DNA of 32,649 nt from the IMG/VR virus record IMGVR_UViG_2778261544_000010, positions 1 to 32,649 of that record, one strand, 5' to 3'. The stretch comes from a virus (lineage: Duplodnaviria; Heunggongvirae; Uroviricota; Caudoviricetes). The position numbers and the translations under genes were made by a program. This document shows positions 26,057 to 26,880 of the stretch, piece after piece (within the stretch, counting starts at the first letter, position 1; each line of letters begins with the position of its first letter). The notes below the pieces were generated by a model that was not told the DNA's origin, made no database searches, and was given only the letters and a program-made list of their open reading frames with translations.

Positions 26057-26326
26057 ATGAGTGATAAAAAACTTATAAAAAAATCAAATAACTGTGTAGA
26101 TGCATATGCTGATGCATTTGGATATTCATCTTTTGGGGAAGATGACGATCGCTTAGGCTCCATATCTTTCTTTCAGCATGTTACAGAATGGGGCGCTGAT
26201 GGTAGTAATGACACTGAAAACGTAAAGTACAACATTGCAACAATTCGCATGACGGAAGATTTAATGCTTAAACTCGCTGACTTTATTCGCGATCAGCATG
26301 ATAGAGCTAAAACCAATAAGTCATAA
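26057..26326 (+). CDS. Hypothetical acidic 89-aa protein, first gene of the immunity-region cargo operon
   Basis: Begins 80 nt after the cI stop on the same strand. AT-rich. No homolog recognised. Confidence 0.55.
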   Translation: MSDKKLIKKSNNCVDAYADAFGYSSFGEDDDRLGSISFFQHVTEWGADGSNDTENVKYNIATIRMTEDLMLKLADFIRDQHDRAKTNKS

Positions 26327-26334
26327 TATTAACA

Positions 26335-26775
26335 ATGAAACACGGTTATTACGAAGCTCCAAACCTAACTGAAAAGCTTGAACAAGCGGCAAGATCATCA
26401 TCTTTGCATACTGCAGCATTTTCTCAATCAGCTGGTATGTCTGGCGGTAATGTACCTATGCTACAATCAAGTGGTAGCGGTGGCTCTGGGAGTAATAATG
26501 TGCTTGAATCGAAAGTTGCAAAGCTTGAGTCTGATGTGTCCTATATCCGACGTGACGTTGATGAGCTTAAGACAGATGTCAAATCTATCGACAGAAACAT
26601 GATCGCTGTTCTGGAGCGACTCGATTCAATAAAAGATTCACTAGCCAAAAAACCCTCCATCGATGCTGTCGATAGAAAGATTTCAGACGCAAAGCTTGCG
26701 GTATTGCTTGGTGTTCCAGCAATCATCGCTGCAGGAACAGGTCTTTATAAGCTATCAATGTACTTTTTTCTTTAG
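26335..26775 (+). CDS. Hypothetical 146-aa protein with central coiled coil and C-terminal transmembrane helix
   Basis: Starts 8 nt after gene 1. Heptad-like segment VAKLESDVSYIRRDVDELKTDVKSIDRNMIAVLERLDSIKDSL and C-terminal TM AVLLGVPAIIAAGTGLYKL. A strong terminator follows. Confidence 0.55.
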   Translation: MKHGYYEAPNLTEKLEQAARSSSLHTAAFSQSAGMSGGNVPMLQSSGSGGSGSNNVLESKVAKLESDVSYIRRDVDELKTDVKSIDRNMIAVLERLDSIKDSLAKKPSIDAVDRKISDAKLAVLLGVPAIIAAGTGLYKLSMYFFL

Positions 26776-26852
26776 TGCTTAAGAAACTGCTCGCCACCTT
26801 GCATTACGCAAAGCGATTTTTCATTCCCTATTACCCTTTCTTATCCATCTAA

Positions 26853-26880
26853 ACCCGGCCCCAGTGCCGGGTTTTCTTTT
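26853..26880 (+). terminator. Intrinsic terminator ending the cI/cargo transcript (tImm-like)
   Basis: ACCCGGC-CCCAGT-GCCGGGT (7-bp GC stem) followed by TTTCTTTT. Confidence 0.65.

Follow-up and report, generated by a model that had tools for sequence, protein, structure and literature searches.

The region between cI and N of temperate phages is known as a hotspot of mosaicism; it contains rexAB in the case of lambda and bstA in that of BTP1 (PMC8585504). In lambda, the repressor gene is followed on the same strand by the gene of a soluble protein, RexA, a short gap, the gene of a membrane protein, RexB, and the left operator and promoter (OL/pL); RexB is described as polytopic and ion-channel-like (PMC8585504). 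BstA is encoded directly downstream of a prophage repressor, is presumed to be expressed from the same promoter and localises to sites of phage DNA replication (PMC8585504). In P22, the slot between mnt and gene 16 contains orf59a and sieA (PMC10883804), SieA being a single inner-membrane protein with a promoter of its own. We have analyzed a viral sequence of 32,649 nucleotides (nt) (IMG/VR record IMGVR_UViG_2778261544_000010, positions 1 to 32,649; the whole stretch is called the window) in which two small genes, ORF-A and ORF-B, occupy the slot of rexAB. Comparison of their relatives indicates that the pair formed by the two products, A and B, is not an isolated case but one of the combinations found in a modular family, in which partners of several types occur. 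We tentatively propose, as the foremost of several readings but one that may well prove wrong, that A-B is an exclusion module expressed in lysogens, in which A would be the specificity subunit and B the membrane effector, most likely acting to exclude superinfecting phages.

The A-B cassette occupies the slot of rexAB

On the + strand of the window, which corresponds to the leftward direction of lambda, cI is followed by ORF-A, ORF-B, a terminator and the OL/pL region (Table 1); downstream of pL the same strand carries kil, gam, bet and exo. A preliminary description, made from the sequence of the window, had placed two AT-rich genes after cI in the rexAB slot. Their coordinates and strand were confirmed, as was their base composition: the G+C content is 36% for ORF-A, 42% for ORF-B and 40% for the cassette, compared to 46% for cI and 52% for gam-exo. 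The gaps measure 79 nt between cI and ORF-A, 8 nt between ORF-A and ORF-B, 75 nt between ORF-B and the terminator and 120 nt between the terminator and OL, a spacing that parallels that of lambda (112 nt for cI-rexA, 15 nt for rexA-rexB and 173 nt for rexB-OL3). OL/pL was found beyond the terminator, where it had been placed: the segment 26995-27061 contains five copies of the hexamer AACAAC/GTTGTT and the right operator (OR) region, 25184-25293, contains four, for an expected number of ~0.08 per 150 nt. The start of cI is the one given by RefSeq and not the ATG at 25222, which falls within the operator palindrome. A region identical to that of the window is present in an icd-integrated prophage of E. 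coli TD225-C4, in which both ORFs are annotated as "hypothetical protein".

A-B shares with lambda RexAB the slot between cI and OL/pL, the strand and the order of the operon and, as predicted from the sequences, the pairing of a soluble protein with a membrane protein. It shares neither homology nor the polytopic membrane component: RexA has 279 amino acids (aa) whereas A has 89, and B is predicted to consist of a cytoplasmic coiled coil and one C-terminal helix. When A and B were compared with RexA and RexB by BLASTP and phmmer (five-sequence database), nothing better than E ~1 was obtained, which agrees with the earlier statement that neither product resembles these proteins. Furthermore, exclusion is a demonstrated phenotype of Rex whereas it is proposed for A-B. 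A direct comparison with SieA, orf59a and SieB revealed no similarity either. BstA, a single, larger and soluble protein, differs from A-B in both sequence and architecture. We class A-B as a candidate exclusion or accessory cassette of a repressor operon.

The slot is a cargo hotspot and the cassette has no signals of its own

Sister E. coli prophages with the same cI (WP_000858975) and the same kil-gam backbone differ in what they carry in the slot. It is empty in locus L111. In L112 it holds a 353-aa protein and a 125-aa ASCH-domain protein that strongly match the PADLOC candidate PDC-M11 (3e-133 and 7e-52), and in L113 a 157-aa DUF6932 protein and a 310-aa protein that strongly match the candidate PDC-M63 (7e-43 and 4e-42). 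A DUF7946 protein is present in L114, behind a different repressor allele (WP_024185289). The PDC-M11 and PDC-M63 genes resemble A-B in being two-gene cassettes located in the identical slot behind the identical cI allele, but the proteins are unrelated. Their presence identifies the slot as a cargo hotspot that carries defence candidates; PDC-M11 and PDC-M63 are themselves only candidate systems. The genes ydaG and ydaF of the Rac prophage, which occupy the same slot after racR, were considered as possible relatives and found to be unrelated to A or B. The prophages of L111-L114 form a natural allelic series for the study of a defence hotspot, and those with the same backbone and an empty slot or other cargo provide natural controls.

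Cargo in this slot need not serve defence. A-B could be lysogenic-conversion cargo that alters envelope physiology, stress tolerance, division or host interaction to the benefit of the lysogen. The slot also holds a BamE-like lipoprotein (locus H46, with the same cI and backbone as the window) and other proteins of unknown function, the prophage carries clear non-defence cargo in the form of an intimin/invasin-type adhesin, and A-B matches no defence model. Against this stand the PDC-M11 and PDC-M63 genes in the shared slot, the occupation of both classical exclusion slots, rexAB and sieA, by members of the family, and the combinatorial swapping of partners and docking peptides described below, which is more typical of conflict systems. 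We consider a non-defence role unlikely.

The window and the variants in which the slot is empty or carries PDC-M11, PDC-M63 or the DUF7946 protein are homologous up to the stop codon of cI and again from ~26852, the start of the terminator stem. The variable cassette is therefore limited to the segment given in Table 1 and the terminator is part of the backbone. The terminator is also kept in two Escherichia phages as well as in prophages with other or no cargo; a folding energy of -24.7 kcal/mol (z = -3.8) was calculated for its region, and none of 200 shuffled sequences was as stable. The strong, GC-rich terminator announced after the two genes is thus present and separates them from OL/pL, but it does not belong to the A-B cassette.

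A scan for promoters and terminators found no terminator and no convincing promoter between cI and A, and promoter-like sites in the region were fewer than in shuffled sequence. The sole match on the + strand of the cassette is a weak sigma-70-like site (26298-26327, ATGATA-18-CATAAT) inside the 3' end of ORF-A and just upstream of ORF-B, a position reminiscent of the lambda promoter within rexA that serves rexB only (PLIT). Copies in the cI slot and copies in the mnt slot are similar at the DNA level only over ~26031-26750, a segment that comprises both ORFs and the region of ribosome binding. In phage UPF_BP1, the end of mnt and the start of A share sequence, the ATG of A overlapping the final mnt codons. 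These limits suggest that the cassette brings no promoter with it: its expression appears to depend on the promoter of the repressor gene, and the position of A-B in the operon points to co-transcription with cI. As judged by sequence, the lack of a promoter is the strongest available argument for expression in lysogens. In conclusion, the cassette is present or absent between syntenic backbones and differs from its flanks in base composition, as accessory cassettes do; it has no promoter and terminator of its own and appears to borrow the signals of the repressor operon. A role of the window copy in the lytic cycle is unlikely because neither pL nor pR transcribes it in the sense direction.

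A small acidic protein and a predicted tail-anchored coiled-coil protein

The first protein had been described as acidic and soluble, and A indeed has an isoelectric point of 4.98 and no hydrophobic segment. ORF-A is preceded by the Shine-Dalgarno sequence GGAAAGG. In the AlphaFold2 model, with a mean predicted local distance difference test score (pLDDT) of 78, A forms a three-stranded beta-meander packed on a C-terminal helix. A matches strongly the PHROG family phrog_4231, of unknown function; no match was found in Pfam, NCBIfam or the PDB sequences, nor among the PADLOC models.

The predictions for B agree with the coiled coil and single C-terminal transmembrane (TM) helix attributed to it earlier. 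The best-supported part of its AlphaFold2 model (pLDDT 70-83) is the helix 54-104, along which the 3-4 repeat of hydrophobic residues is uninterrupted; another helix, over residues 1-32, is predicted with low confidence. The sole hydrophobic segment (~119-137, Kyte-Doolittle maximum 1.8 at residue 119) is C-terminal, and GVP, T135, Y138 and K139 are near-invariant in this anchor. The lack of a signal peptide and the basic residues ahead of the hydrophobic stretch suggest that B is a tail-anchored protein, most of which would lie on the cytoplasmic side of the inner membrane. B has a strong match to a PHROG family of unknown function and no significant match in Pfam, NCBIfam or PADLOC, where only coiled-coil models were hit (PADLOC E >=0.006). 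Its matches in the PDB sequences are likewise coiled coils only, mostly trimeric ones (tail needle gp26, Lpp, sigma-1).

Partners and cores are combined in a modular manner

In all cases a small ORF in the same orientation precedes B, and its family varies. At least five partner families were distinguished: A1, the type of the window (~89 aa, 33 loci), A2 (136-187 aa, 34 loci), A2b (136 aa, 8 loci), A3 (~93 aa, 13 loci) and a Cys-rich, zinc-ribbon-like family (119-132 aa, 5 loci), to which singletons of various sizes are added at a few loci. No Pfam or PADLOC match was obtained for any partner tested. Profile-profile comparison of A1 with A3 revealed no similarity; a C-terminal helix motif "ATIRM...L" that the two seemed to share was an impression only and is statistically unsupported.

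The N-terminal peptide of B sorts by the family of the partner and not by the identity of the core (30-100%). All the B proteins linked to A1 start with a variant of M-K-H-D-Y-Y-E-x-P-x-L-x-E-K-L-E-x-A-A-K-S-S-S-L, whether their core is 100%, 82%, 54% or 30% identical to that of the window. The B proteins linked to A3 share a different N-terminus of 80 residues, and those of the other families likewise have their own. In all families a Gly-rich linker lies ahead of the conserved core, which starts with MLEARVAKLE.

The converse was seen when A1 was followed across genomes. Of 43 viral loci with A1, 10 divergent ones were inspected, and in all 10 A1 was followed by a protein made of an N-terminal peptide, an S/G-rich stretch, a coiled coil and a TM segment. 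The proteins paired with A1 belong to at least five unrelated core families (128, 139, 146, 152, 186 and 203-224 aa), and several of them, not all, keep a start resembling D/E-Y/F-Y/F-x-x-P-x-L. A peptide that tracks the partner, together with the pairing of A1 with unrelated cores, led us to propose that A docks on the N-terminal peptide of B; peptide-plus-partner on the one hand and coil-plus-anchor on the other may be read as separately exchangeable units.

Defence systems typically combine a conserved effector with sensors that can be exchanged. It is conceivable, if somewhat doubtful, that the pair belongs to a hitherto unrecognised family of plug-and-play defence modules carried by prophages of Enterobacterales, in which a tail-anchored coiled-coil effector would carry an exchangeable docking peptide for each small cytoplasmic sensor. 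Such a family would comprise sensors of at least five unrelated families, together with several effector cores, and would ride passively in a cI or mnt operon. If so, a temperate phage could, by recombination in the linker, direct the same membrane effector against new invaders.

Both genes are conserved and under purifying selection

Homologues of B form 108 clusters in Escherichia, Salmonella, Klebsiella, Citrobacter, Enterobacter, Serratia, Pantoea, Erwinia and Dickeya, and the full region is present in ~198 of 5426 complete E. coli genomes (~4%); in many genomes the same flanks enclose other cargo or none. The family of A is narrower, with 15 clusters; a profile search retrieved 8 true relatives among 1.84 billion representatives at 50% identity, and two further matches, to WD40 repeats, were judged to reflect a spurious beta-hairpin similarity. 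The ratios of non-synonymous to synonymous substitution rates (dN/dS), measured against four diverged copies, are 0.06-0.10 for ORF-A, 0.11-0.23 for the core of B and 0.33-0.41 for its first 55 codons, and the latter value means that the N-terminal extension is also translated and constrained. Both genes are real, conserved and under purifying selection. That the ORFs are spurious, or decaying and functionless, is very improbable: they are annotated only as hypothetical proteins and ORF-B has no Shine-Dalgarno sequence, yet dN/dS is well below 1 for both genes, the 108 and 15 clusters extend across genera of Enterobacterales, the pairing is kept in three genomic contexts and the fold of A is predicted with confidence.

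The settings of the pair were surveyed in 105 loci with B relatives, the window excluded, and the neighbouring genes were labelled according to the annotated reference proteins that they resemble. In 64 loci the partner and B come directly after a cI-type gene; at least six repressor alleles of two types (S24-bearing or short and CI_repr-like) are involved, several of them unrelated. Ten loci (Salmonella phage UPF_BP1 and 9 other viral contigs) have the cassette after mnt in P22-like phages, in the slot of sieA; in UPF_BP1 it replaces orf59a and sieA. These homologues, as distinct from the window copy itself, fill the mnt-gene 16 slot co-oriented with mnt and overlapping its stop; the likeness to SieA ends there, as A-B consists of two proteins unrelated to it and has no promoter of its own. 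In 5 loci the cassette lies antisense between tail genes I and K. The remaining 26 are unlabelled, and among them L059 follows an unlabelled cI-like ORF of 232 aa; L020-L022, L025, L095 and L100, described below, also belong to this group.

Many cassettes carry a third small gene after B (L002 5794-5982, L144 3736-4110, L151 3754-3984, L152 3843-4070, L004 5474-5854). In P22-like loci it encodes 62-124 aa with 1-2 TM helices and sometimes a coiled coil of its own, and in Citrobacter-type loci a BamE-like lipoprotein. The window cassette has no third small gene.

B shows a weak likeness to a lysis protein

The proteins had also been said to resemble nothing recognised. This holds for the databases searched, in which no significant Pfam, NCBIfam or PADLOC match was found and the PHROG families are of unknown function, but B shows a sub-threshold likeness to XhlA (PF10779), and some database sources label relatives of B as "hemolysin XhlA". 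XhlA is a membrane protein from the lysis cassette of PBSX in Bacillus, where the holin XhlB is its partner (PMC5589764). Like B, it has a short coiled coil followed by a C-terminal TM helix. The window B scored 11.5 bits (E=0.34) against the Pfam model, for a gathering threshold of 34.7 bits; a 117-aa relative that shares the coiled-coil region (L013) aligned to positions 9-66 of 67 with E=1.9e-5 and 25.2 bits, also below threshold. Unlike XhlA, B is extended by a linker and a putative docking peptide and has a soluble partner dedicated to it, and it occupies lysogeny slots and not a late lysis cassette. Two Pantoea loci (L020 and L058) contain tandem XhlA-like coil-TM genes (99 aa and 136 aa) next to the gene of an AraC-like regulator, and no soluble partner appears to be encoded between the two.

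The XhlA-like features of B, the tight coupling of two small genes of which the first encodes the soluble protein, and a docking peptide suggestive of direct neutralisation are what would be expected if A-B were a toxin-antitoxin-like or holin/antiholin-like pair. A would then restrain a membrane toxin, B, and loss of the prophage or shut-off of cI at induction would free B, stabilising the prophage or tuning lysis. We regard this as quite unlikely. Firstly, neither a promoter nor an operator is conserved as part of the cassette, and no toxin-antitoxin domain was found in Pfam or NCBIfam that would make it a type II system. Secondly, in the 105 loci B was never part of a lysis cassette and never adjoined a holin or an endolysin. 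Thirdly, naturally empty slots are common, hence the cassette is dispensable for the phage.

A tentative model of exclusion by A-B

In the exclusion model, transcripts from the cI promoters would read through cI into A and B and end at the backbone terminator ahead of OL/pL. B would insert in the inner membrane by its C-terminal helix, its bulk remaining cytoplasmic, and oligomerise through the six-heptad coiled coil, while its N-terminal peptide, carried on the Gly/Ser linker, would dock the small acidic A, probably a dimer. A is proposed to be the specificity or regulatory subunit, and B, as a distant likeness of the PBSX holin partner XhlA, to act on the membrane. A phage product would engage or displace A, and the infection would be aborted through perturbation of the membrane by the freed B, a mode of action also proposed for RexA/RexB. 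The slot, strand and terminator, the limits of the cassette, the domain layout, the co-variation of peptide and partner and the recurrence in repressor-linked slots are seen in the sequences; co-transcription with cI, binding of A to B, the topology in the membrane, any anti-phage effect and its abortive or non-abortive nature are predictions.

The layout of slot and operon in a known mosaic hotspot, the lack of a conserved promoter travelling with the cassette, its recurrence in repressor-linked slots, the defence candidates found as sister cargo, the co-variation of peptide and partner, the exchange of partners and cores, purifying selection and the likeness to XhlA all speak for exclusion by A-B. 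Several observations weigh against it. The argument is one of location and architecture. Neither A, B nor the alternative partners matched any PADLOC model (PADLOC-DB v2.0.0), and full-text searches found no description of the pair in the literature. The XhlA likeness is sub-threshold and a coiled coil plus a TM helix is a low-information architecture; the AlphaFold2 model of B has a low confidence overall (pLDDT 60). The BamE-like lipoprotein of H46 is not obviously related to defence. Lastly, the family of B is not exclusively repressor-linked: in Serratia-type prophages (L025, L095 and L100) B relatives with the Cys-rich, zinc-ribbon-like partner are co-oriented in tail operons, and in Pantoea (L020-L022) B relatives follow an AraC-like gene. 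The L025, L095 and L100 copies could be expressed late and need not fit a model of expression in lysogens.

The same complex might also exclude phages without killing the cell. B would then be an anchor or scaffold and A the effector, blocking genome entry or an early membrane step at the cytoplasmic face of the inner membrane, which would make the pair a functional analogue of P22 SieA or HK97 gp15. The replacement of orf59a and sieA by the cassette behind mnt in P22-like phages is in keeping with this, as is a variable A joined to a constant B core; the pairing of A1 with unrelated coil-TM cores suggests that the core needs only to anchor and to oligomerise. However, B would expose almost nothing to the periplasm, its TM helix reaching the C-terminus, the near-invariant residues of this helix go beyond what a passive anchor needs, and there is no similarity to SieA. 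Non-killing exclusion appears rather unlikely, and the abortive model remains the tentative favourite.

Cargo of some kind is expected in this slot of a prophage; the wide spread of A-B, its presence in both exclusion slots and its legible architecture make it a better-than-average candidate. Should the module exclude phages, it would represent a defence family that current detectors miss, as it has no model in PADLOC, Pfam or NCBIfam, and one that is spread over ~4% of complete E. coli genomes and over prophages of Salmonella, Klebsiella, Citrobacter, Enterobacter, Serratia, Pantoea and Erwinia. Its construction from docking peptide, linker, coiled-coil anchor and swappable partners makes the coupling of sensor to effector, and its evolution, directly testable, and gives a handle on the poorly understood XhlA-like membrane proteins. 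If its role is not in defence, A-B would still be a widespread membrane complex of lysogens predicted from sequence.

Features of the region and of the prophage

The features of the region are listed in Table 1. The cro-like protein also showed a sub-threshold similarity to Pfam P22_Cro (E=8e-5, 22.8 bits for a cut-off of 30.2).

Table 1. Location of the A-B cassette, its parts and its neighbours in the window.
Feature	Position	Strand	Remarks
cro-like regulator (YdaS family)	24953-25183	-	divergent from cI; Pfam YdaS_toxin E=4e-17; RefSeq "transcriptional regulator"
OR-like operator/promoter region	25184-25293		between cro and cI; 4 AACAAC/GTTGTT half-sites, including palindrome 25222-25246
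cI repressor, 229 aa	25288-25977	+	Pfam Peptidase_S24 1.5e-18, HTH_3 6.5e-13; WP_000858975
Variable cargo cassette	25978-26850	+	differs among prophages with the same cI and backbone
ORF-A (partner family A1), 89 aa	26057-26326	+	
ORF-B, 146 aa	26335-26775	+	
ORF-B residues 1-32, partner-specific N-terminal peptide (YYEAPNLTEKLEQAA...)	26335-26430	+	co-varies with partner family
ORF-B residues 33-55, Gly/Ser-rich flexible linker	26431-26499	+	pLDDT <50, no secondary structure; Gly-rich in all family members
ORF-B residues 56-104, conserved coiled coil, ~six heptads	26500-26646	+	AlphaFold2 helix 54-104
ORF-B residues 119-146 and stop, predicted C-terminal membrane anchor (tail-anchor type)	26689-26775	+	AlphaFold2 helix 109-145
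Intrinsic terminator closing the cI operon	26851-26880	+	backbone, not cassette; stem 26851-26874 of 9 bp with 6 G-C pairs, then T-run
OL/pL-like region	26995-27066	+	5 operator half-sites; TTGACG-17-TTAAAT reading rightwards, promoter read directly in the sequence
kil-like cell-division inhibitor	27327-27533	+	first annotated gene of the pL operon; RefSeq annotation of identical region

Between pL and kil (26880-27327) there is no N-like ORF; a 136-aa ORF with a GTG start at 27123 is an in-frame upstream extension of kil. An N-independent antiterminator RNA in the pL leader was considered and found no support: the leader (~280 nt) is no more structured than shuffled sequences (z = -0.47) and matches no Rfam family. 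Further along the pL operon, just after exo, a gene on the + strand (29525-30589) encodes a solitary DndB-like (DGQHR) protein (Pfam DndB 4e-46, PADLOC DndB 4e-37), near which no other dnd genes were seen.

On the - strand, a C4 antisense RNA (16602-16687, 72 bits) and isrK (16712-16784, 61 bits) were detected with Rfam directly upstream of an antirepressor gene with Bro-N and P22_AR_C domains (15947-16555, - strand). This arrangement resembles the c4-ant secondary immunity module of P1 and P7, here in a lambdoid prophage. The adhesin mentioned above is an inverse autotransporter of 1303 aa of the intimin/invasin type (18469-22380, - strand; IAT_beta 8e-101, with Big_1 and Invasin_D3 repeats); it adjoins an alpha/beta-hydrolase (BD-FAE) gene (17389-18432, + strand), and both lie beside replication gene P. 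The prophage of TD225-C4, otherwise identical, has NADAR, phosphoribosyltransferase-like and MT-A70 genes in place of the autotransporter and the hydrolase.

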